Both the position numbers and the translations under genes were made by a program. Below are positions 17,495 to 33,423 of a stretch of DNA of 52,740 nt, in pieces. The stretch's first letter is position 1; each line of letters begins with the position of its first letter. Below the pieces are notes generated by a model. That model made no database searches and was not told the DNA's origin. It worked only from the letters and a program-made list of their open reading frames with translations. Source of the stretch: a virus (Duplodnaviria; Caudoviricetes); IMG/VR virus record IMGVR_UViG_3300042945_000786, positions 1-52,740 of that record; one strand, written 5' to 3'.

Positions 17495-20400
17495 TCAGAT
17501 GTCCCTCATGAGTTGGTTGGCGCGAGCGGTGAGTTGCTGCCTCCGCTCGTCCAGCCTCTCCAAAATGAGACGCTTCTGGTCTTCAGGTAGTCTGCCTTCC
17601 CTGACCTGACGCATCTGTCTGGAGAGTTTCCTGAGAGCATTGTCAATCGCACGAACGGCGCCAGAGACTTTCAGTTCATCAGAGAAGCGCTCACGGGCAT
17701 CAGCAAGGCGCTCCGTGTTGCCCTCCTCTACGGCAGCCTTGACCTCATCAAGGGCGGTCAGGACGCGGTTCCTCTTCTCGACGTAGGCGCCTGTGTCTTC
17801 CCTTGTCGTGACGGTGCCTATGATCTTCCCGAAGATCGGAACATTCCTGACCACATCTTCAGAGAAGCCCTCATCATACGCCCTGAACGGCGTCTCTGCC
17901 GTCCTGATGACAAAGCGACCGACGCCACCTGTCAGATACTCAAACCAGAAGTCGATGAGATCAGGTGACACATCGACCATACCCTTCACTTCTGTCGTGC
18001 CGCCGGTGACAGAGTTCATGGCGTTGGCCAGCCATACAGCCGGAACACTTGTGGTTGACCAGTAGAGTTGGCTGGAGGGAGTCCTGTCGCCGGGGAAGCC
18101 TTCCTTATAGACAGGCTGGTTGGCAAAGTTCTCGTTCTGCCAAATGTCGATGAACGGATCGAGCACGGTTGGGGAGGCCGCGTTGGCAAAGCTCTCGCTA
18201 CCGCCAATCGGGTTAACCGTATCCAGCATGGTGCCGACAATGCTCCCGGCAGCCTCGCTTGGCTCATACGCTCCGCGCGACAGACGTCCCATGGCGCGGC
18301 CCAAGTTGTGCGCCATGTTCAGGCCGTAGGGCATCGGGATGGAGATGTACGAGCGATCAGTGAAGCCGAAGACATCAGGCAGGATCAGGTTGTGCTCGAG
18401 GACGTACTCAGGAATCTTGTCGTAGAGCTTCTCGCCATCCTCATCGTCTCCCGACATTATGGCATTGAGGTAGTCCTGCATGATGCCAACGCCGATTGCG
18501 GCAGCCCAGAACTTCTGAACCTTCTTTGACCTGAGTGCCGCGTTCAGCATGGCGAAGGAGCCCTGAAGCGAGGCGTTGTAGAACAGGTACATGGCGTTCA
18601 TGAACGTCTTGTAGTCGCCGCCCTTGGCAAAGTTGACGGTGATGTTCCGGGCAGCCTGAGCCGCACGCTGAGGCGTGAAGCCCTTGTCGAGTAGGGCCTT
18701 GTAGGTTGTGACGCGGATGCCGTTCTCGATGACCGTGTTGTAGTCCTCGACGAAGCTAAGGAGGGACATCGCCCCCTTGCCCACGAAGCCGTTCTTCACG
18801 CGGTTGAACTGCTTGCGCGCACCGCTGTCGGCGATGTCGCCGATGATGCCGCTGATGTTGTTCATCTGGTCGGCAACCGTGTTGACTTGGTTCGTCGCGT
18901 TCTGGCCCCCGTTCTTCACGAAGTCACGGTAGATTCTGGCCCACTCGGAAGAGTTGTCGTTGTTGCGGATGGATTGCTTGATGCCGCGAAGTGCACCCGG
19001 AACATCCCTCACGATCTTCCGCGTCAGGCCATCGATCTCGTACTGAGCCACGTTCACGCCCGCAGTCTGAAGGTCGCGGAACATGTTGGTGATGAAGAAG
19101 GCCGGGTTGAGAGAGGTGTTGATGCTAGCCAAGTACCGGTTGATTGTCGCCAAGGCACGGATCAGCCCGTTGTTGTGAGTGGGCGACATGCTCCCCTTGA
19201 GGGCGGATGCGATGGCATCGCTCTCCAGTTTGACGATGACCTCCTTGCCGTCCTCCTTCACGACAAAGATGTCTGGCTCGTTGCGGAAGTTCGGATCGAG
19301 CACGGTCTGGACGGTCTGGACCACCGTGCCGTCAGCGCGCTTGCGCTCCACGAGGACGCGCTTCTGCACATCCTTCATGTCGCCCGGCTTCAGGATGCGG
19401 CCATAGCCCTTGGTCTTGGCGGGGTCGGAGCGCAGCAGTTGCAGGAAGGACTGGCCCACCTTGTTCCGCTCTGCCCTGATGATCGCGTTCTGGTTCTGCA
19501 CGAGCAGGTTCGGGATGATATTGTCAGCGTAGTCGTAGCGACCCAGAGAGCGCCGGTCCTCCCTGCGGCGGGCACCGTACATGGGCGAGCGATACGGCCC
19601 CGTGGCCTGCTCATCCACCGGCTCTCCAGAAGGGTCGCGCTTGCCACGCAGGGGGACGTAGTTGTCGTACTGAGGAACATCGACCGTGTCCCCGGTGGTG
19701 GGGTCTGTGTACTGGAAGAACTCCCTCGGGATCAGGCCACCCTCAAGGCGGACATCGTTGGTCGACTGCACGATCCTCTGCGTAGCGTCGGCGATCTTCT
19801 GCATCGTGCTGGCGTAGGGGCTGCTTGCGAACCAAGCGAGGATCGCGTCGGCCTCACCGTCAGTCATGCCAGAGCCAGCATCGTTCTCTGGGTCGATGCC
19901 ACGGATGTACTCGTTCCGCTCCTTGGCATGGCTGGCGTAGAGGAAGATGTCAGCCATCGAGAGAGCGTTGCTGCGTGTGTCATTGAAGGCCACATCGGCG
20001 AAGCCACGGCCAACAGATGCAGAGTTGGACGCCGCGATGAGTTGCTGCTTGGCTTGGTCAGTGACCTTGAGGCTGCCGACGAGGTCGATGAGCGGGCGGT
20101 ACAGGTTGGTCTGTGCCTGCTCCACCTTCTCCCCAACCACGCCGTGGTAGAGTTCCTCCTGCATGTAGGTGTCCATGGCGTCGGTGATGTTCAGGCCATT
20201 GGCCCGAAGCTCATCGATCATCCGACCCACGGGGATCATGCCGTCTTGGAACTTCTTGATGATGCCGTCAGCGATCTGCTTGGAGCGTGCATCGTCTGCC
20301 CCGATGCCGGTGATGCGAAGGCCTTTTGCCAACAGGTCAGCAGCCTTCGAGTAGACCACGTTGGTCTGCTTCTGTGCCGTCTGGCGCTGGACCTTTCCGG

Positions 20401-23400
20401 CAACAGAGTTCCGCGTCGGCACCATGGACTGCCGCACCAGAGGCGTTGGAGATGGCGCTGAGGTGGGCTCTTGGGCTGGCATGTCGCCAGCCCTGCCCTC
20501 AGTCCATGTCCAATCAGGCATGAGGCCAGTCTTCTGATCCGCGAAGACAGTGTCCTCGACCTTGGCATTCCGGTTCGAATCGCCATAGGGTCCGTAGTTC
20601 AGCCAAGAGTTCTGGCCACGAGTTTCCGATGTGATTGCCCCAACGGCAGAGCCGGTGAAGAGGCGCACATGCGCCTGCCAAGCGTTCTCTTCGCCACGGG
20701 CGCGGAAGCCAGAGCCCTCTAGGCCGTGGCCGAATGCGTCGTGAACGGCACGGAAGAGGTCATTGGCGAGGACTGGCGCCGTCTGCTCGCTATCGGGTGA
20801 TCCAACCGGCCAGCGAAGACCGGTGTCCTCGAGCATGGGGTTGTCTTCGACATTCAGTTCGGTCGCGCCAGAGCCAAAGCCTCCCGCTGTTGGGAAGACG
20901 CCCATCTGCTTGTTCGCCCTGATATCGCGCAGTGCGTTCCAAGGGGATGACAGATATGCCTCGTTGTCAGGGCGAGACAGATCGGTGAACCAGAACTGGT
21001 AGCCATCCTGCGCCAGCGCATTGTACTGCGCCAATGTCTGGCGAATCAGGTTCTGGTATGCCTCCCTAACCTTGGGGTCTTGCGGCGCATGAGGCATGGC
21101 GTCGTACGCCGCAGCAATGCGCGCCGCTCGCTCGGGATCGACATCGACGTACTCTGACTGGCGGCTAAGATCGAGCCCGATGCTCTTGGCGTACTTGTCG
21201 GCGATGCGAACAAGACTTGGGTCAGGACCAGTGAAGCCCTCGACGCGGGGCGCTCCGGGCAGCGGCTCTAGCGGCGAGAGAGCAACTGCTCGTTCTGGTG
21301 CTGCCAGCGTGCGAGCCTCAGTTTCCCGAGTTCCAAGTCCTCCGACTCCTCGTCCGGGGACGGCTGAATATCGATCCGCTTCGCGACCTCCGGTAATTCT
21401 TCTCTGGCGCGGACGTATTCCTCCACCGGCAGCGCCTGCCCCTCGTCCAATTCCCTCAACTCTATCGGCATATCCGACAGAAGCTCCGCTTGCTCGTCTG
21501 CCGACGGATCGGTCGAGGCGTACGCCAGCCAGTTCTCCCTCGTAAGAGGAAGGCGCAATTTTACCAGCAGCCCCACCACCGGGTCCAAACCAAGTAGGCT
21601 CATTGATACCTCCCATGAACCGTTCAACATCGTCCCGCGCGGATTCGACGGAACGCTTCCCCTCGTTAACCTCACGCCAGATGCCATTAACTCTGGCAAC
21701 CTTCGCCTTGCTGCGCTTCTCCTCAGCAGGGAAGAGACCGCGCACAGCCTCCCAAGTGATCGACTGAAGTTCACGCGCCGTGATCCCAAGCGACCCAGCC
21801 GTCCTCCTGTAAGCCTCAGCGTATATACCATAGACACCGATAGCGCCAGTGTCTCCAATGCTCTTTGCTGCAATCCAGCCTTGCGGCTGCTTAGCCTTCG
21901 CCGGGCTGGACCCAAAGTTATGATGAACTTCTGCGCTGCTCCCAGATAGCGGGCGGATCAGTGCTGCGGCAACAGCGTGGGTATCGATGGTGACATCGCC
22001 ATGGGGCGCATCAGGGGCGAGGATGTTGTTGAAGAAGTTCCTGACCTTGTGCTGGTCGCCCATCGCAAGGCTCGTGGCCTCACGGCTCTGGTGCGTCAGG
22101 ACATAGATGGCCTTGGCGATTTCAACATTCGACCCCCAGCCAACCTTGCCTGACGGATCGCCGATGAAGTCACCCTCAGCGCTGACGGTGCGGTAGCCTC
22201 TCGGGTTGTAGGTCTCGTCGTATAGGCGAAGCCACATGGCCTTCAGGACCGGGTCTTCCAGACCGGCGTAACTGTTGGACATGACAATGCGGAGGGCGGG
22301 AGCGTATTGCTCCTTTCCGTAGATGCGCTGTGCCGTCTCGGCCATCTCCACGGTCGGCGTGAACGCGATCATGTTGCCGCGAGAGAAAGTCTGGTGGATG
22401 TCGATCAGGCGCTCCGCCAGAGAGACGTTCTGATACCAGTCCTTTTGAGGCGACAGAGCGGCGAGAACCCCAGCGACCGTAAAGTCTGGAATCTGGTACT
22501 GACCAGACATCCGCTCGGCGATCTTGCGAGCGCCGTTGTACCACAACTTGGACCGCTTCCTGATCTCTTGAGGCACGCGGTTGTGGAGCCACAGCAGGTT
22601 GTCGGAGACAAACTGGATGAAGTCTTCTGCGATCTGGTCAGGGTCTTCAGATGCCGTCACGAACCCCGGATAGCCCTTGATGACCTGCATGTTGTGAGCA
22701 AAGGCCTGCGGGCTCTGCTTCATCGCGTTCAGGTCGACGATCAGGTTCTGCGTCAGCGGGTCTTCGGTCGCCCTCTTGGTGTAGGGCTGCCGAGTAGAGA
22801 TGCGATCTTCAGTATCGCCAGACGCCATGATCCGAGTAATGGCTTGGCCCTCGGCCCAGTCATTGAAGTCAGCGACCTTTTCGCGGTCATACACGCCGTC
22901 TGTCTTGAACGCCCCCTCAGATGCAAGCACCATCGAGAACCGACGATACGGCTTCGGCCCGCGCTCGTAGACGCGCGTCTCTGACGGGTAGAAACTGTGG
23001 ACATAGTGGAACGGGTCTGGCGTCAGCCTGTTGTTCTCGGACAGGACGAGACGTAGACGCGGTGCCTTGAGCGGGCGGTTGTCGATCCACTCGAGCGCGA
23101 ACTGATCACCGTCCTTGCCGCCGATGACGGAGTCGCCGTTCCTCATCCCCTGCTGCTTCCAGACCTGAAGCATGTCGAAGATGGCCTTGTTGACGTCCTT
23201 GTACTTGGACATCTCGTAGAGTTCTTGGTCGTGCTTGCGGGCAATGATGTGCTTCAGCCCGTACCCGGTATCGACACCACGCTCACGGAAGATGTGCTCG
23301 CCGACAGGCAGGATGACCGACTGCTTCCTGCCACGGTAGTCAATGATATTGCCGTAGGAGTAGGAGTCAGTGCCGTCCCTGTTCTTCACGGGAGACGGCA

Positions 23401-26400
23401 CAGGCATGAACGACTTGCGTTCGCGGGGGTCAGCCGCGATTGCGACGGCAAGGTCGTCAAGTTGCCGGTTCAGGTCGGCCAGTTCTTCGGGGGACAACTG
23501 GTCATCGACAGAGACATCAGCCTCTGCCGTCGGGACTGCGGCGGGAGCGGCGGCTTGAGCGGCAGGAGCGGCGCCACGCGGCCTTGCTCCGATCTCACCG
23601 TAGCGGATGCCCTCGAAAATCTTCTCGACCGAGTCGAAGCCACGCTCGGTGTGTACCCCGATGATGGCCTTGAAGAAGTTCTTGAGGCGCTCGAAGATCG
23701 TCTTCTGCGGTCCTTTGACCGTGGTCTTGCCATCAAGGTAGTCGCGGAAGAGTTCTGCGACAGCCTCCTCCTGAATGACCGCCTCATCGTACCCCATGGC
23801 ACGGGCGCGCTCTTCATAGGTGTAGCTGCGCTCGACAGGTTTGCCCTGCTTGATCGCGACGTACTTCTTGTTCTTGGCGTAGGCGGTGAGTGTGTTCCAC
23901 TCTGCGTCAGTGATGACACCCATCAGGCGAAGGGCGTGGATCACCTCGTGGTTCATGACGCTGGCGATGGAGTCGAACAACTCCTGATCGGTCATGCCCT
24001 TGCGATAGATACCCATCGACAGGCTGATGATCCGCTTGACAGGATCGTACTTGCCCTCGGCAACACCCATGACCTTGCCAGACTGGTCGCGGGCCAGCAT
24101 GGCCTGAGCGCCCTCAAGGCGAACCTCCTTGAGGCCGAGGTTGTTGAGCCGCTTGCGCAGGGCTGCAAACACATTCTGCTGCTGTGCCGTGAAGATCGGT
24201 GTGTAGTTCACCGGCTCCTTCATCGTGGCAGCATTGAAGCGGGCCTGACCTGCGGCCTCACGCTCCTTTGCGGCCTGCACCGTGGCGGAGGGGTCGCGGA
24301 GTCGTGCCGTGGCTGTGTCGCGCAGTTTCTTCAGATCGGCTGCTGTCTGCTCCAGTTGCTGAAGCCGTGCCTTCTGAGCATTGTTCAGTTGAACTTTTTT
24401 CTGCCGCTTGCGGAGATTAGCAGCCTGTTTCTCCGCATCACCGATCTGCTGGTTATAGCCAGCGATATTCTGCCGCAGCGTCTCCATCCGCTGCTGGATG
24501 GCTGGTGCCGTCGCTTCGGTGACAGGCACAGCCACCTTGGCAGCATCCAGCGCCACACGCTCTACGGACGGGATGGCGCCAGCCTGCTTCGCGTTCTTGA
24601 TCTCGGTCTCAGCCGCAGCGACGCGAGCCTTCGCTGCCTCGATTGAGGCATCAAGGGTGTCGAGCTTCTGGTTGAACAGGGCGGGATCGGCCCTCTTCCC
24701 GGTCGAGTCCTTGCCGGTCTGCTCTACGCGGCGGACTTCCTCGATGAGGTTCTTCCGCTCCTTCTGCGACAGATCGATCTGCTTGTTCAGCCCGTCGATC
24801 TCCTGACGCAGGCCGGTCTCGATGCTATCGGTGCGGGCGATGGGCTCGAGACTGTAGCCAGTGCGAGACTTCGTGTCAGCGCGTATCACGCCGCGAGACA
24901 CCATCTCGTCGCGGATGTCGCGGACCACCGTGTTGGGAACCTTCGCCTTGGTGATGTCCCTCACAGCCTTCTGAATCTTGGGGAAACTGACGCCCTTGTC
25001 AGCCTTCACCTGTTGCACCGCGCGGTCGTACTGCTCTTGGGTGAAGGTCTTGTTCTCCACCGGGCCGAAACGAGCAATGCCGCCAGTGACGGGCTTCTGC
25101 TTCTTCGCCTCGCGCTCGGAAGCGGCAGTGCCGACGATGGCTTGCAGTTCCTCTAGCGTGACTTGAGGGAACGGTTCCTGACCGGCGTTGGCACGCGCCT
25201 GAGAGATGGCAACGCGCTCTTCCATGGGGAGACTTGTGAGGGCCACAGGGCGGGTAGGTGTGATAGCCTCCATACCCGCACGACCACGCAGCGCTGTCTC
25301 TTCCTGAGGCGTCGTACGGGCCGTGGATGGAGCGGGTAGGGCAAGAGGCGCAGCCTCCGGGGATGCGACCTTTTCAGCGGCTTCTGCTGCCCGGCTCTCT
25401 CGTGCGTTCTGGATGTACTGGTCGCCGCGAGCGCCCAGTTCCTCCATGTCCTCGTCGAGTTCTCGCTTTTTACGCTCCGCTTCTTCCTTGCGGCCAGTGA
25501 CAAGAGCGCCGCCCGCAGCGCCGATACCGCCACCAAGGACGGCGGCTCCGAGTGCAGCCTCGCCATAGCGTTGAATTGCCTCCTCGCTGAGAGGGTCTTT
25601 GCCAGCCTGAAGAATGCCGAGCAGTTCCTGACCAAGTTCAGTCGGCACCTCAGTGACAACGCCACCCGCAGCACCTCGCGCGGCACGGGTGAAGAGACCG
25701 CCCTCAGCGGCCTTCTTCAGGACGTTTGCGCCATACTTGGCTCCGACAGCAGACAGGACACCGTCGAGCAGAGATGCCGGTGCAGCGGCAAGGGCAGCAG
25801 CGCCTTCGCTCACCTCAACGGGGCGACCCGCCTCGATGTCAGCCTCCTTCTGCTGCTCGCGGAAGTCGCCATAGAAGTACGGTAGAGACGCGAGGGCAGC
25901 ACCACCGAGGGCACCAACCGTCCCGCCGACAACGGCGCCTACCGGCCCACCGAAAGCGCCAATTGCAGCACCGGCCTTTGCGCCAGCGTAGCCACCAGCA
26001 AGTGCGACGGCGGTCTGCGGCGCAGAACCACCAGCAATTTCGCCAACGTAGCTTGCGGCACTGCCGATTGCGCCCTGAGCCTCGCGCTCCTTCTCGAGGG
26101 CGGCAGCCTCAGCCAGACGATCAAGCTCAAGACCCTGACGCTCCGCGATACCAGCGCCGTATCCAGCAAGGCTCTCGAGCCCAGTGACGGTGCCGATGCC
26201 CTCCAGAGCGGAGCCGTATGCTCGGCCTAGCCCGGCTAGCCCTACGTCGATGCCGCGACCGAATGCGGTGGTGTCTTCAGGGGGAGCGGCTTCAGTCGCG
26301 ACCGGAGCCCCGAACATCGACTCATACCGCGACTGGAACGCAGACTCTTGCTGCGCCACATACTGATCGATCCGGGCTTGCTCTGCTGGGGTCGGTACGT

Positions 26401-26464
26401 CCCCCGCGATGTTGACAGCATACTGCGTGCCGCTGAAGGCACCGGGGACGTATATGACGGCCAT
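17495..26464 (-). CDS. Large polyvalent internal virion/ejection protein (2989 aa)
   Basis: Gly/Ala-rich N-terminus, coiled coil, HEVIH+EEAVAE zincin, GYGLKHI..KH BECR-type nuclease-like domain, HhH-glycosylase-like domain, RAVHDAFGH domain, LPD38-like C-terminus; last gene of the ejection cluster. Confidence 0.85.
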   Translation of the reverse strand: MAVIYVPGAFSGTQYAVNIAGDVPTPAEQARIDQYVAQQESAFQSRYESMFGAPVATEAAPPEDTTAFGRGIDVGLAGLGRAYGSALEGIGTVTGLESLAGYGAGIAERQGLELDRLAEAAALEKEREAQGAIGSAASYVGEIAGGSAPQTAVALAGGYAGAKAGAAIGAFGGPVGAVVGGTVGALGGAALASLPYFYGDFREQQKEADIEAGRPVEVSEGAAALAAAPASLLDGVLSAVGAKYGANVLKKAAEGGLFTRAARGAAGGVVTEVPTELGQELLGILQAGKDPLSEEAIQRYGEAALGAAVLGGGIGAAGGALVTGRKEEAERKKRELDEDMEELGARGDQYIQNARESRAAEAAEKVASPEAAPLALPAPSTARTTPQEETALRGRAGMEAITPTRPVALTSLPMEERVAISQARANAGQEPFPQVTLEELQAIVGTAASEREAKKQKPVTGGIARFGPVENKTFTQEQYDRAVQQVKADKGVSFPKIQKAVRDITKAKVPNTVVRDIRDEMVSRGVIRADTKSRTGYSLEPIARTDSIETGLRQEIDGLNKQIDLSQKERKNLIEEVRRVEQTGKDSTGKRADPALFNQKLDTLDASIEAAKARVAAAETEIKNAKQAGAIPSVERVALDAAKVAVPVTEATAPAIQQRMETLRQNIAGYNQQIGDAEKQAANLRKRQKKVQLNNAQKARLQQLEQTAADLKKLRDTATARLRDPSATVQAAKEREAAGQARFNAATMKEPVNYTPIFTAQQQNVFAALRKRLNNLGLKEVRLEGAQAMLARDQSGKVMGVAEGKYDPVKRIISLSMGIYRKGMTDQELFDSIASVMNHEVIHALRLMGVITDAEWNTLTAYAKNKKYVAIKQGKPVERSYTYEERARAMGYDEAVIQEEAVAELFRDYLDGKTTVKGPQKTIFERLKNFFKAIIGVHTERGFDSVEKIFEGIRYGEIGARPRGAAPAAQAAAPAAVPTAEADVSVDDQLSPEELADLNRQLDDLAVAIAADPRERKSFMPVPSPVKNRDGTDSYSYGNIIDYRGRKQSVILPVGEHIFRERGVDTGYGLKHIIARKHDQELYEMSKYKDVNKAIFDMLQVWKQQGMRNGDSVIGGKDGDQFALEWIDNRPLKAPRLRLVLSENNRLTPDPFHYVHSFYPSETRVYERGPKPYRRFSMVLASEGAFKTDGVYDREKVADFNDWAEGQAITRIMASGDTEDRISTRQPYTKRATEDPLTQNLIVDLNAMKQSPQAFAHNMQVIKGYPGFVTASEDPDQIAEDFIQFVSDNLLWLHNRVPQEIRKRSKLWYNGARKIAERMSGQYQIPDFTVAGVLAALSPQKDWYQNVSLAERLIDIHQTFSRGNMIAFTPTVEMAETAQRIYGKEQYAPALRIVMSNSYAGLEDPVLKAMWLRLYDETYNPRGYRTVSAEGDFIGDPSGKVGWGSNVEIAKAIYVLTHQSREATSLAMGDQHKVRNFFNNILAPDAPHGDVTIDTHAVAAALIRPLSGSSAEVHHNFGSSPAKAKQPQGWIAAKSIGDTGAIGVYGIYAEAYRRTAGSLGITARELQSITWEAVRGLFPAEEKRSKAKVARVNGIWREVNEGKRSVESARDDVERFMGGINEPTWFGPGGGAAGKIAPSSYEGELAGVRLDRSVGRRASGASVGYADRVEGIGRGAGAAGGGIRPRQRRITGGREADRYSAVPGRGVGGLGTRETEARTLAAPERAVALSPLEPLPGAPRVEGFTGPDPSLVRIADKYAKSIGLDLSRQSEYVDVDPERAARIAAAYDAMPHAPQDPKVREAYQNLIRQTLAQYNALAQDGYQFWFTDLSRPDNEAYLSSPWNALRDIRANKQMGVFPTAGGFGSGATELNVEDNPMLEDTGLRWPVGSPDSEQTAPVLANDLFRAVHDAFGHGLEGSGFRARGEENAWQAHVRLFTGSAVGAITSETRGQNSWLNYGPYGDSNRNAKVEDTVFADQKTGLMPDWTWTEGRAGDMPAQEPTSAPSPTPLVRQSMVPTRNSVAGKVQRQTAQKQTNVVYSKAADLLAKGLRITGIGADDARSKQIADGIIKKFQDGMIPVGRMIDELRANGLNITDAMDTYMQEELYHGVVGEKVEQAQTNLYRPLIDLVGSLKVTDQAKQQLIAASNSASVGRGFADVAFNDTRSNALSMADIFLYASHAKERNEYIRGIDPENDAGSGMTDGEADAILAWFASSPYASTMQKIADATQRIVQSTNDVRLEGGLIPREFFQYTDPTTGDTVDVPQYDNYVPLRGKRDPSGEPVDEQATGPYRSPMYGARRREDRRSLGRYDYADNIIPNLLVQNQNAIIRAERNKVGQSFLQLLRSDPAKTKGYGRILKPGDMKDVQKRVLVERKRADGTVVQTVQTVLDPNFRNEPDIFVVKEDGKEVIVKLESDAIASALKGSMSPTHNNGLIRALATINRYLASINTSLNPAFFITNMFRDLQTAGVNVAQYEIDGLTRKIVRDVPGALRGIKQSIRNNDNSSEWARIYRDFVKNGGQNATNQVNTVADQMNNISGIIGDIADSGARKQFNRVKNGFVGKGAMSLLSFVEDYNTVIENGIRVTTYKALLDKGFTPQRAAQAARNITVNFAKGGDYKTFMNAMYLFYNASLQGSFAMLNAALRSKKVQKFWAAAIGVGIMQDYLNAIMSGDDEDGEKLYDKIPEYVLEHNLILPDVFGFTDRSYISIPMPYGLNMAHNLGRAMGRLSRGAYEPSEAAGSIVGTMLDTVNPIGGSESFANAASPTVLDPFIDIWQNENFANQPVYKEGFPGDRTPSSQLYWSTTSVPAVWLANAMNSVTGGTTEVKGMVDVSPDLIDFWFEYLTGGVGRFVIRTAETPFRAYDEGFSEDVVRNVPIFGKIIGTVTTREDTGAYVEKRNRVLTALDEVKAAVEEGNTERLADARERFSDELKVSGAVRAIDNALRKLSRQMRQVREGRLPEDQKRLILERLDERRQQLTARANQLMRDI
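21268..21603 (-). CDS. Nested +1-frame gene inside the polyvalent gene (111 aa, acidic; candidate immunity protein)
   Basis: GGGAGGT-ATCA-ATG at 21603; MSLLGLDPVVGLLVKLRLPLTRENWLAYA...; host frame is Gly/Arg low-complexity with many A/T-ending codons here. Confidence 0.7.
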   Translation of the reverse strand: MSLLGLDPVVGLLVKLRLPLTRENWLAYASTDPSADEQAELLSDMPIELRELDEGQALPVEEYVRAREELPEVAKRIDIQPSPDEESEDLELGKLRLARWQHQNEQLLSRR

Positions 26465-31064: not shown

Positions 31065-31982
31065 TTACGCCAGTAGCTTGGCGAGAGTCTGGGGGCCTGC
31101 TACCCCATCAGGCTTCAGGCCTTGGGCTTGCTGCCACTCTTTGAGGGCTTTTTCGGTGCCGGGGCCGAAGCTACCGTCGGCTGTGATGCCGAGGGCTTTT
31201 TGGAGAGCGGCAACTTCTCCGCCACGGCTTCCAACGCGGAGGCTTTTATTTCCTCCACCTTGTCCTGCACTGCGTCCTCCAACTTGTCCTGAACCTTGTC
31301 CAGCACCTTCCCCGCCACTGCTTCCATCACCATCCCCTGCGGGGTTTTGCCCAGTAAGGACCGCAAGACCTTGAACATAACGCCGTCTCCTGTCTTCGAG
31401 GCCGATGTCGCCTCCGTTGATGATCTTGGTGACACGAGCAACATCGCCCGTGTCAGCCACGTCGTTCAACTTGCGGCTGTCCCAGAACCACAAGGCAGAC
31501 ACCAGAGCGCCCTCTTTGGTCTCCAGATAGGCGGCGACCTCTTCCGCACTCTTGCCAATAGCCTTCCCGAACGTCGAGTAGTTCGAGCGACCAGTGACCT
31601 GCTTCAGGCCACGCCCACGGAAGCGCCAGCCATCGCCCTCTTGAACGTTGCCGAGAGCGCCGCCCTTCGAACGGAACTCGTCCATGTAGACGTAGTTCGC
31701 GATCTTCTCTGGCTTGCGGGCATACTCGTTCGCATTGCGCTTGTTGGCACCGAAGTACTTCGGGAACACGCGCTCCAGCGATTCCTTGCTGTAGTTGAGG
31801 TTCTCCTCCAGCAATTTGAAGTCCGCGCTTTCATGCGCGCACTGGCTGATGAAAGAGGCGATCCTCTGCGGCGTGGTGATCCCGTACTTCGGGAGCATGT
31901 CATTGAGTGTCTTGCACCACTCCGCAACCTCAGTGTTGGTCGGGATCATCTTGGCAAGTTGTGCCTCAGTCAGGAGTGCCAT
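31065..31982 (-). CDS. Endolysin, GH19 with C-terminal peptidoglycan-binding domain
   Basis: Q.AHES, EENLNYS, GDGWRFRGRG.KQ.TG, INGG..GL.DR; DG.FGP.T...Q...GL.PDG..GP.T. Confidence 0.93.
   Translation of the reverse strand: MALLTEAQLAKMIPTNTEVAEWCKTLNDMLPKYGITTPQRIASFISQCAHESADFKLLEENLNYSKESLERVFPKYFGANKRNANEYARKPEKIANYVYMDEFRSKGGALGNVQEGDGWRFRGRGLKQVTGRSNYSTFGKAIGKSAEEVAAYLETKEGALVSALWFWDSRKLNDVADTGDVARVTKIINGGDIGLEDRRRRYVQGLAVLTGQNPAGDGDGSSGGEGAGQGSGQVGGRSAGQGGGNKSLRVGSRGGEVAALQKALGITADGSFGPGTEKALKEWQQAQGLKPDGVAGPQTLAKLLA
31115..31378 (-). CDS. Nested +1-frame gene inside the endolysin (87 aa, amphipathic)
   Basis: AGGAG-N8-ATG at 31378; MFKVLRSLLGKTPQGMVMEAVAGKVLDKVQDKLEDAVQDKVEEIK...; explains the Gly-rich lysin linker. 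Confidence 0.65.
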   Translation of the reverse strand: MFKVLRSLLGKTPQGMVMEAVAGKVLDKVQDKLEDAVQDKVEEIKASALEAVAEKLPLSKKPSASQPTVASAPAPKKPSKSGSKPKA

Positions 31983-31990
31983 GGTATCTC

Positions 31991-32443
31991 CTACTCACAC
32001 CACGAAGACTTCTTCTCACCCTTATACGGCCTTGCGTGTCCGTTCTCAATCAGCATGTCGGACAGGCTCTTGCCGTCAAGGAAGACGTAACCCAGCACCC
32101 TGCCGCCGTACTTGTCCCATTCCTTGATCTGCACGTCGATCACCGTGGCACTGGCGATTGCGGCCTTGGTGAACGCACTCGCTTCAAGCGCCTTGCCAGC
32201 CTCGGCGGGGCACAGAGCCCTCGGCGCCTTCTCTGGAGTGTCCACACCCAGCACACGAATGGAGAGCTTAGGGGGCAGGGGGGCTGGCAGGAACCCCACT
32301 GCGATCTCTATCGTGTCGCCATCTATGATGCGGTTGACCTTGTACGACTCAGCAGACGCGCTGAAGCCGAGGAAGATGAGTACCACCGCCTTGGTCAGGA
32401 TGGCGATGACCGCTATCCAGTGGGGTATCCAGTTAGCCATCAC
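31991..32443 (-). CDS. Thermonuclease (SNase-like) with N-terminal signal/TM
   Basis: IIDGDT, IRV.GVDTPE, DKYGGR.L. Confidence 0.9.
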   Translation of the reverse strand: MMANWIPHWIAVIAILTKAVVLIFLGFSASAESYKVNRIIDGDTIEIAVGFLPAPLPPKLSIRVLGVDTPEKAPRALCPAEAGKALEASAFTKAAIASATVIDVQIKEWDKYGGRVLGYVFLDGKSLSDMLIENGHARPYKGEKKSSWCE

Positions 32444-32718
32444 TCGGAGCCGCCAGCCGGGGGTTCGGGCGCCTTGTCCTGCCCGCGACGTGTGGCGAGC
32501 ATGATGCCAGACAGCGTGCCGGTGAGGAATGTTGCGATGGGCTGGATCAGTTCGAAGAACTTCTCGTCGTTCGGCGCGCTGCCATTCATGGGCTGCGTCA
32601 CGAAGATCAGGCTGTAGAGAACAGCGAAGATCGTGCCGGTCAGCGTCAGCGCAAGGCAGATGCCGACAAAGAAGCGCAGTTTGGCTTCCAAGGCATCAGC
32701 GTAGTCATCAACCTTCAT
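32440..32718 (-). CDS. Two-TM membrane protein (holin candidate)
   Basis: Two hydrophobic segments, located in the lysis cluster. Confidence 0.6.
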   Translation of the reverse strand: MKVDDYADALEAKLRFFVGICLALTLTGTIFAVLYSLIFVTQPMNGSAPNDEKFFELIQPIATFLTGTLSGIMLATRRGQDKAPEPPAGGSE

Positions 32719-32947
32719 TTGTCACTCCTCCCCTCTCGATGAGGTAATCTGTGCAGGTTCCTGATGCCTCGCATACTGGAGGCAGGCACTGTTGGTCAGA
32801 CCACATTGCTGGGTCTTGGCATTGATAGCGGTAGAACCCGTCCCCCGCCATGTAAACCATGTAGGCAAACAAAGCCACGGCAACGGCCAAGGCAACGAAT
32901 GGGCCGTAGGTAATCACACCCCAAGCCGCTTTGATCATGCGTCTCAT
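32708..32947 (-). CDS. Membrane-anchored Cys-rich protein
   Basis: TM followed by YRYQCQDP..W....C.PP.C...G.C. Confidence 0.7.
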   Translation of the reverse strand: MRRMIKAAWGVITYGPFVALAVAVALFAYMVYMAGDGFYRYQCQDPAMWSDQQCLPPVCEASGTCTDYLIERGGVTNEG

Positions 32948-33423
32948 CAGTAGCCCTCATTGTTGGCATAGTAGAGGAAGATGATCAGGCCAATCATGGC
33001 TGAAACGGACGAGATGATCAAGAAAATCAGGAGCCCGCTGATCAGCATCTCCTTCACCTCGGCCTTGCGGTGCTCATGGGCCTGCCTGCGTTTGCGGATG
33101 TCGCCCTCCATGCGAAGGAACTCTTCCCATCCGCTCTGGCCGTACGAGAATTGGATGTACGTCCTCAACTCGTTGCGCTGCGCCTCGATCTTCTTCTTGG
33201 CAGCGAAGACCTCCATGGCCTCTGCCTGAGCGCTGCCGCTGAACGCCTTGTACCAAGGCGGGTCTTCCGCCTTCTTCTCGAAGTACTCGAGGTCGGAGAT
33301 GGCACTGGCCCATTGGGACAGTTGGCCACCCATGTCTTGAAGCTCTCTGCCGAACTCAATGCCCTTCTTGATGGCATTGTAGGCGCTGCTGGCTAGGGCT
33401 ATCGCACTGACTGGATCGAGCAT
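32947..33423 (-). CDS. Membrane protein with C-terminal TM
   Basis: MLDPVSAIALA N-terminus, coiled coil, hydrophobic C-terminus. Confidence 0.75.
   Translation of the reverse strand: MLDPVSAIALASSAYNAIKKGIEFGRELQDMGGQLSQWASAISDLEYFEKKAEDPPWYKAFSGSAQAEAMEVFAAKKKIEAQRNELRTYIQFSYGQSGWEEFLRMEGDIRKRRQAHEHRKAEVKEMLISGLLIFLIISSVSAMIGLIIFLYYANNEGY

Follow-up and report, generated by a model that had tools for sequence, protein, structure and literature searches.

Lysis genes that lie out of frame inside other genes are known from several described systems. In phage lambda, the o-spanin gene Rz1 lies wholly inside the i-spanin gene Rz in the +1 frame, an arrangement that gene callers usually miss (PMC6139136), and in Staphylococcus phage 187 an out-of-frame gene for a holin-like protein has been reported inside the endolysin gene ply187 (1999; cited in PMC3615230). 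Other endolysin genes, such as lysA of mycobacteriophage Ms6, give a second product in frame (PMC3111421, PMC9430671). A different type of lysis protein is the disruptin gp28 of phage phiKT, a helical protein of 56 residues with a net charge of +7 and no transmembrane (TM) segment or signal, whose gene lies between holin and endolysin in a phage for which the cited text gives no recognisable spanin (10.1101/515445); according to the same text, the disruptin screen of Holt et al. looked in spaninless phages for helical proteins of fewer than 80 residues with a net charge of at least +4 and no membrane signal. Here we describe an open reading frame (ORF) of 87 codons that lies, in another frame, within the endolysin gene of an uncultured virus of the Caudoviricetes (IMG/VR record IMGVR_UViG_3300042945_000786; the whole stretch analysed, 52,740 bases with a completeness estimate of 88%, is called the window below). 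Judged by its conservation and its pattern of substitution, this ORF is very probably a real gene under selection.

The preliminary description of the window, made from its sequence alone, had compared the ORF with Rz1. The comparison holds for the gene architecture, as in both cases a lysis-cassette gene lies wholly inside another one in the +1 frame, although the host gene here is an endolysin gene and not an i-spanin gene. It fails for the product: Rz1 is a lipoprotein of the outer membrane, rich in Pro and bearing a lipobox, whereas the embedded product is predicted to be helical and contains neither a lipobox nor Cys nor a signal. As in phage 187, the whole of an out-of-frame gene is contained in an endolysin gene; unlike the holin-like protein described for that phage and its Gram-positive host, however, the present product is without a TM segment and is encoded on an interdomain linker, and the evidence for it is evolutionary, not experimental. 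With the Ms6 lysA type, as portrayed in the cited accounts, it shares the principle of two polypeptides from one endolysin gene, but there both are read in the same frame and the second is a shortened lysin, whereas here the other frame is used, with a product that bears no relation to the lysin. Like gp28, the embedded protein is small, predicted to be helical (at low confidence) and free of TM segments and signals; unlike gp28, which has a standalone gene, it is overprinted, it is longer (87 residues, 83 in the contig L082 and 77 in the recorded protein cluster P0125), its core is net acidic, and its whole charge ranges from -1 to +8. A full-text literature search, which covered few subscription journals, returned no out-of-frame gene in an endolysin linker, phage 187 being the only comparable case, and no instance of a standalone cassette gene alternating with an overprinted one. 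Embedded +1 lysis genes are therefore known, and what is new, among the literature searched, is a non-membrane out-of-frame protein on the linker of an endolysin.

The embedded reading frame and its conservation

The host gene and the parts of the embedded ORF are as follows.

31065–31982, minus strand: endolysin gene, 305 residues, with the catalytic part at about 1–209, the linker at about 210–247 and PG_binding_1 at about 248–305
31115–31378, minus strand: embedded ORF in the +1 frame, 87 codons plus stop (31115–31117), with its ATG at 31378
31386–31391, minus strand: AGGAGA, a hexamer resembling a Shine-Dalgarno sequence, which the lysin supplies as its Arg codons AGG AGA, 7 nt upstream of the internal ATG
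31223–31378, minus strand: constrained core of the embedded ORF, codons 1–52, with an N-terminal cationic helix, a GKTPQG hinge and a long amphipathic helix
31118–31222, minus strand: tail, codons 53–87, rich in Lys, Pro and Ser, over PG_binding_1 and with no +1-frame selection detected

The lysin matched the endolysin family phrog_181 in PHROGs (E = 7.6e-72) and, in Pfam, PF01471 above the cut-off (E = 1.4e-14) and PF00182 under its cut-off (19.7 bits). In the search against solved structures, residues 4–209 matched the endolysins 9eoi (E = 1e-34) and 4ok7 (E = 2e-28), the latter of which we take to be a GH19 enzyme, and residues 245–303 matched peptidoglycan (PG)-binding domains. These matches identify the host gene as a GH19-type modular endolysin, made of a catalytic domain and PG_binding_1. 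The two domains are separated by a linker of about 37 residues, rich in Gly, Gln and Ser, which exceeds the linkers of the relatives by only about 12–20 codons.

At the start site the lysin reads GAC AGG AGA CGG CGT TAT GTT, which yields AGGAG from 31391 with the ATG 8 nt on. Across the ten long genes of the window that served as the reference for codon usage and GC content, AGA makes up 4.8% and AGG 16% of Arg codons. The linker has an unusual composition in the lysin frame: GC content at codon positions 1, 2 and 3 is 0.81, 0.65 and 0.29 there, owing to GGA, GGT and CAA codons, and 0.63, 0.27 and 0.81 in the embedded frame, compared with 0.61, 0.49 and 0.70 in the ten reference genes, so that GC by codon position matches the embedded frame and not the lysin frame. 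On all three counts, namely the AGGAG created by AGG AGA CGG CGT ahead of a +1 ATG, the 87-residue product, and the G/C-ending embedded codons over a GGA/GGT/CAA-coded linker, the preliminary description was borne out. Within a single sequence, however, the length of the ORF together with AGGAG is not beyond chance. AGGAG occurs 77 times on the minus strand, 17 of these copies lying ahead of an ORF of at least 50 codons, and in relatives with a short linker the +1 frames at the same site are open for 13–90 codons and unconserved. The evidence that goes beyond chance is comparative, as set out below.

Relatives of the lysin were collected in a scan of viral contigs that gave 333 stretches, of which the best 80 were kept, and a query with the embedded protein brought in three more contigs (two from a metagenome scan that gave at least these, and one viral). 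The long-linker set comprises 14 contigs, that is, 11 among the best 80, with lysins 71–100% identical, and the three added ones; the remaining 69 loci form the short-linker set, with shorter linkers of Ala, Pro and Thr. All 14 long-linker contigs keep the ORF open, with the same ATG and the same AGGAGA, while the two codons between AGGAGA and the ATG vary. The ORF has 87 codons throughout except in L082, where a 12-nt deletion that keeps both frames leaves 83. Neither AGGAG at the site nor a similar peptide was found in any of the 69 short-linker loci. Conservation of the ORF and its Shine-Dalgarno sequence was the check that the preliminary description had proposed, and no contig sharing the linker carried a stop in this frame. 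Across the 11 distinct nucleotide sequences, stops are absent throughout from just two frames, that of the lysin and the +1 frame; each of the other four is stopped in 4–11 of them. Gene callers have recorded the embedded protein as five clusters, P0121–P0124 (87 residues) and P0125 (77 residues). The last of these keeps residues 1–43 and differs at the C-terminus, which implies, at the level of sequence, a lysin whose region beyond the linker differs.

Lysins themselves are recorded as 39 clusters of 277–306 residues at 73% identity or more, selected by length and identity and not by linker. The lysin of one contig, L088, is a mosaic: its catalytic part is 91% identical to that of L002, and its linker and embedded ORF resemble those of L005 and L006. 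Because its parts resemble different relatives, recombination appears to occur inside lysin genes.

Selection in two frames and the origin of the embedded gene

Selection was analysed on the 11 distinct sequences (10 for the catalytic domain, in which L088 is cut). The mean pairwise differences at lysin codon positions 1, 2 and 3 are as follows.

Catalytic domain: 0.12, 0.08, 0.44
Embedded codons 1–52: 0.26, 0.14, 0.06
ORF part over the PG-binding domain: 0.16, 0.16, 0.26
Downstream of the embedded stop: 0.14, 0.15, 0.55

The third codon position of the lysin, the most variable one in the catalytic domain, is thus the least variable one over the first 52 embedded codons. Expressed as minimum numbers of changes per lysin codon position, the switch is from 69, 46 and 281 to 42, 27 and 9 (chi-square p = 9e-22). 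It sets in at about lysin codons 202–205, which is where the embedded ATG lies; third-position variability stays near zero up to codon 246 and is fully restored beyond codon 289. The apparent ratio of non-synonymous to synonymous change (dN/dS) follows the same course, being 0.07 in the lysin frame and 2.2 in the +1 frame of the catalytic domain, 3.9 and 0.22, respectively, over embedded codons 1–52, and 0.26 and 1.83 over codons 53–87. An overlap-aware count led to the same result: of the linker sites where a change would be non-synonymous in both frames, 34 of 212 had changed (0.160), and of those where it would be non-synonymous in the lysin frame alone, 35 of 89 (0.393; p = 2e-5), while in the PG-binding part the embedded frame is unselected (p = 0.86) and the lysin frame is selected (p = 5e-4). 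Exchanges in the core are restricted to those among V, I and L, between D and E, and between K and R.

As selection in each frame differs by stretch, the functional part of the embedded protein would be residues 1–52, and the tail would be set by the PG-binding domain. The ORF thus displays an open frame, a conserved start and ribosome-binding site, and a signature of purifying selection that is confined to codons 1–52. That a second gene is overprinted here, as the preliminary description had proposed, is strongly supported by conservation in 14 of 14 contigs and by a switch of selection in exactly that stretch.

The linker is probably truly dual-coding. By chance, the lysin frame would stay open in only 4.9% of synonymous re-codings of embedded residues 14–52, no in-frame ATG, GTG or TTG was seen among the linker codons listed, and the PG-binding domain is under selection. 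The linker would accept almost any small or hydrophilic residue, and it is because of this tolerance that the embedded frame could be kept under purifying selection there while the lysin frame is merely kept open.

The same stretch contains a feature that suggests how the embedded frame arose.

31251–31309, no strand assigned: 12-nt tandem repeat, 4.9 copies with 70% matches, read as (G-Q-G-x)n in the lysin and as (D-K-V-x)n in the +1 frame

This repeat would explain the four-residue hydrophobic period of the long helix as well as the 12-nt (four-codon) indel in L082. Expansion of the linker by the repeat may have produced the (GQGx)n series in one frame and, in the other, the (DKVx)n series from which the helix was born de novo. 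De novo birth through linker expansion, and not insertion of a foreign gene, is the most likely origin on this comparison. Relocation into the linker of a small gene that occupies the lysis cassette of related phages (described below) was rejected as the main scenario in view of three observations: the ORF starts over the end of the catalytic domain, its first 12 codons overlying the conserved last helix of that domain; the linker has gained only 12–20 codons; and the helix is built from the repeat.

The predicted product and the lysis cassette

AlphaFold2, given an alignment of eight rows, predicts helices at residues 2–9 and 13–54 and a disordered tail at low confidence (predicted local distance difference test, pLDDT, 58). 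Residues 1–15 carry a net charge of +3, the long helix -2 to -6 and the tail +1 to +7. The helical product with a cationic amphipathic N-terminus that had been anticipated in the preliminary description agrees with this model and with the charge of residues 1–15. No TM segment of the sort expected of a holin was found in the embedded protein (the best 19-residue mean is 0.69 on the Kyte–Doolittle and 0.31 on the Eisenberg scale), and the eight aligned embedded proteins contain no Cys and no lipobox, in contrast to an o-spanin of the Rz1 type. A profile search of 1.84 billion representative proteins returned only the same embedded ORF (P0124, P0125) and three further entries, P0126–P0128, which are repeat proteins and were judged artefacts. 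Matches in Pfam and PHROGs were all below threshold (PF02912, E = 0.051; phrog_32585, E = 0.0066), those to solved structures found with the sequence alignment A1 were coiled-coil and SNARE chains without significance (E = 0.1–0.84), and the ESM Atlas gave no usable feature match for the embedded protein. Structural neighbours consisting of a single helix, for instance a TatA-like cluster (TM-score 0.60/0.57), were not taken as evidence. By these searches, the embedded protein is a new orphan family.

The endolysin gene is the last one of a conserved cassette in the order g158, g79, g92, an optional SNase-like nuclease gene and the lysin gene. The members upstream of the lysin are:

31991–32443, minus strand: SNase-like nuclease (PF00565, E = 1.6e-10; phrog_452) with a hydrophobic signal-like N-terminus, between g92 and the lysin
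32440–32718, minus strand: g92, 92 residues, matching phrog_25359 of unknown function (E = 7e-18), holin-like with two TM segments by eye
32708–32947 and 32947–33423, minus strand: g79 and g158, respectively

The nuclease gene is present in some relatives and absent from others, in both clades. In g79, an N-terminal segment is hydrophobic and a conserved part is rich in Cys and Pro (the GDGFYRYPCQDP motif), with no lipobox; g158, of 158 residues, has a C-terminal hydrophobic segment or anchor and no lipobox either. In other loci, where these upstream members were noted at L095:1040-1471 and 1468-1656 and at L024:1883-2314, the neighbour of g79 is a coiled-coil protein of 143 residues with an N-terminal TM segment. 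Together with such a neighbour, g79 might form an unconventional envelope-spanning pair; were it spanin-like, the phage would not be spaninless. A loose lipobox scan of the record gave 17 matches, none of them on the coding strand within the cassette or close to it, as had been stated beforehand for a clear lipobox spanin. Outside the cassette, a single minus-strand ORF of 2989 codons (17495–26464) was noted downstream of putative ejection-protein genes.

In the short-linker relatives, g92 is followed by a standalone small gene of 57–77 codons that overlaps it by 4 nt and precedes the nuclease or the lysin gene. Two examples are:

L016:2359-2586: standalone small gene
L095:1919-2086: standalone small gene

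In the clade with the embedded ORF, the nuclease gene adjoins g92 and there is no small gene between them. Of 83 loci whose context was examined, 76 could be evaluated, having at least 900 nt upstream of the lysin; many of these are near-copies. They fall into three arrangements:

g92 with the small gene and without the embedded ORF: 63 of 76 loci
g92 with the embedded ORF and without the small gene: 11 of 76 loci
another holin (L045, L057) and neither the small gene nor the embedded ORF: 2 of 76 loci

The claim of the preliminary description that the ORF encodes a lysis accessory gains indirect support from this distribution, as the ORF is confined to loci that lack the small cationic standalone gene. 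Like the embedded protein, the small protein belongs to a cassette with g92, is all-helical in prediction (pLDDT 57, again low), has no TM segment and ends in a basic tail, and the two never co-occur. On the other hand, the small protein is encoded by a separate gene and contains a conserved LPDP motif, a break that is absent from the embedded protein. Its net charge is +4 to +7 in 14 of 15 aligned members. It matched no Pfam or PHROG family, and a longer, fused form of it (147 residues) was met once, on a contig of 553 bp. The GenBank phage MW202675.1, whose lysin is 49% identical, has g92-like and small ORFs as well, both of them unannotated; because this more distant phage carries them too, the small gene is likely to be ancestral.

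The two loci with other holins have near-identical lysins, which shows, on sequence comparison, an exchange of modules upstream of the lysin. The holin of L057 (L057:2603-2998) belongs to PF11351, GTA_holin_3TM, and that of L045 (L045:2531-2983) to phrog_6637; both loci lack g79, g92 and the small gene. Homology of the small protein to the L057 holin was considered, as many members share the same first seven residues, and was dropped when hhalign aligned only 12 residues at a probability of 11%; for the embedded protein, homology to this holin was likewise rejected, none being found. A complex prediction for g92 (A3) with embedded residues 1–56 scored 0.00, which, without controls, is no evidence either way.

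Proposed role and competing explanations

We infer that the embedded protein is translated, where it would be located and that it takes part in lysis. The late mRNA of the cassette would be read twice, the lysin ATG (31982) giving the GH19-like domain, the Gly linker and the PG-binding domain, and the internal AGGAGA and ATG (31378) giving the 87-residue protein in the +1 frame. This protein would consist of a cationic amphipathic helix of nine residues, the GKTPQG hinge, an amphipathic helix of about 40 residues and an unconstrained, mostly basic tail, and it may have taken over from the small cationic helical protein encoded right after g92 in related phages. With neither signal nor TM segment it would be cytoplasmic and would most likely use its amphipathic helices to bind the membrane when the holin is triggered or afterwards, whereupon the outer or inner membrane might be disturbed in the manner of a disruptin, or the g92 holin might be tuned. 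In our judgement, the balance tips towards this reading, namely a separately translated gene overprinted on the endolysin linker whose product is a lysis accessory that replaces the small gene and probably binds membranes. A lysis role in place of the standalone small gene seems fairly probable. The membrane-disruptive, disruptin-like mechanism is, in comparison, doubtful: action of this kind on the outer membrane would be favoured by the lack of a lipobox spanin among the sequences scanned, but the core is not cationic, no similarity to gp28 was found, g158 and g79 may be envelope proteins, and the record is incomplete.

Several observations weigh against the overall proposal. The net charge agrees only in part with that expected of a disruptin: of the 14 variants, ten carry +5 to +8 as whole proteins, three +2 or +3 and one -1; for 13 of 14 the core under selection is net -1 to -3 (-3 in P0125); and most of the positive charge sits in the tail, which is not under selection. 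The hydrophobic moment of the long helix is maximal at 93 degrees per residue and not at 100. Against phiKT gp28, hhalign gave probabilities of 0.1% for the embedded and 1.7% for the small protein, that is, no similarity. Since the record is 88% complete and the cassette encodes the membrane proteins g158 and g79, the label 'spaninless' is not established. In the lysin tree, the loci with the embedded ORF form one clade (Shimodaira–Hasegawa-like approximate likelihood ratio test, 99), though the root of the tree is not settled, and because this clade has one origin, the mutual exclusion of small gene and embedded ORF amounts essentially to a single event. Profile comparison gave no homology between the embedded and the small protein (hhalign, 12% probability, 13 columns); their pairwise scores exceed those of shuffled sequences modestly (p from 0.03 to <0.0005; 0 of 2000 shuffles for the best pair), an excess that shared helical periodicity could explain, and a hidden Markov model search with the embedded alignment A1 did not retrieve the small-protein family. 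Finally, blastn against isolate phages found no close relative, and the closest isolate lysins are less than 50% identical, so that there is no cultured relative. The suggestion in the preliminary description that the product is membrane-active or a regulator of the lysin finds no backing in the protein itself, which has no TM segment, lipobox or Cys, no likeness to gp28, and most of its cationic charge in a tail that is not under selection.

The main alternative, which we regard as unlikely, is that the embedded protein does not disrupt membranes and instead acts in the cytoplasm on the g92 holin, as a partner or as a regulator of its timing, similar to soluble antiholins. The 4-nt overlap of the small gene with the end of g92 in short-linker relatives suggests coupled translation, wherever g92 was seen, one of the two, small gene or embedded ORF, accompanied it, and the two loci with swapped holins have neither, the absence of a signal or TM segment means a cytoplasmic product, and what is selected is a specific, highly conserved core of some 50 residues rather than a generic cationic peptide. 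Yet a protein born de novo is less likely to acquire a specific protein contact than a generic membrane activity, and the co-occurrence is equally well explained by exchange of the whole g79-g92-small module, L045 standing beside L031 in the lysin tree. It is less probable again that the gene is real but serves something other than lysis, for example host takeover or counter-defence, and merely makes use of a tolerant linker and late expression; the orphan status of the family, with its own ORF as the only profile match and no Pfam or PHROG family above threshold, would fit such a role, whereas its place inside the lysin gene and its mutual exclusion with a cassette gene comparable in size and in helical class speak for lysis.

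Two further explanations dispense with a separate gene, and both appear highly improbable. Tandem rare Arg codons with an upstream Shine-Dalgarno-like sequence can promote +1 shifting. A ribosomal frameshift near AGG AGA, both rare Arg codons, would fuse the catalytic domain to the amphipathic helix, with no PG-binding domain and no start of its own for the second frame, and in all long-linker loci the +1 frame is indeed open for at least 20 codons upstream of the ATG. The ATG, however, is kept in 14 of 14 contigs, the +1 residues between AGGAGA and the ATG vary freely (GDGV, GENA, GESV, GERD), the switch of selection begins at the ATG and not upstream, and no slippery motif was noticed on reading the alignment, although no dedicated motif search was made. 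Conservation could also stem from an antisense gene, from RNA structure or from a repeat constraint at the DNA level. The RNA from 31223 to 31400 does fold somewhat better than shuffled sequences (z = -2.37; 3 of 200 as good), and the codon-aligned antisense frame has an apparent dN/dS of 0.38. That frame is nevertheless stopped in 4 of 11 sequences, and its low ratio is a mirror effect of the kind seen opposite the catalytic domain (0.23); the consensus RNA fold has a covariation term of -0.39 with compensatory change in 1 of 39 pairs, and Rfam gave no match at E up to 1. Neither of these alternatives accounts for the strict three-base periodicity in the +1 frame or for the restriction to V/I/L, D/E and K/R exchanges. 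As a separate observation, the consensus fold (31364–31392) pairs AGGAG with a stretch just past the embedded ATG and could mask the ribosome-binding site; the pairs concerned are invariant or show one-sided G-C/G-U changes, so that covariation speaks neither for nor against it.

If the embedded gene is what we propose, it would be an unusually clean case of overprinting in a double-stranded DNA phage, in which selection passes to another frame for about 50 codons before returning, and the 12-nt repeat in its tolerant interdomain linker still shows how it was probably born. This suggests that the flexible linkers of modular enzymes are possible cradles for new genes. Such genes are missed by annotation, the embedded protein being on record as 5 clusters compared with 39 for the lysin, and for endolysin engineering it follows that 'synonymous' recoding or a linker swap would destroy a second gene. 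According to the cited text of Kongari et al., a spanin was not found in 91 of 677 phages (PMC6139136). The embedded protein and the standalone small protein are two testable candidates for the unassigned lysis step in phages without recognisable spanins. One might go further, though the idea is speculative and rather unlikely as it stands, and picture a lysis protein that arose de novo from the +1 frame of the repeat-built Gly linker and displaced an older, unrelated standalone gene of the cassette, a non-orthologous displacement by overprinting. Both proteins would then represent a new and widespread class, found in aquatic podophages without canonical spanins, of soluble amphipathic disruptors of the outer membrane or of co-factors of the holin.

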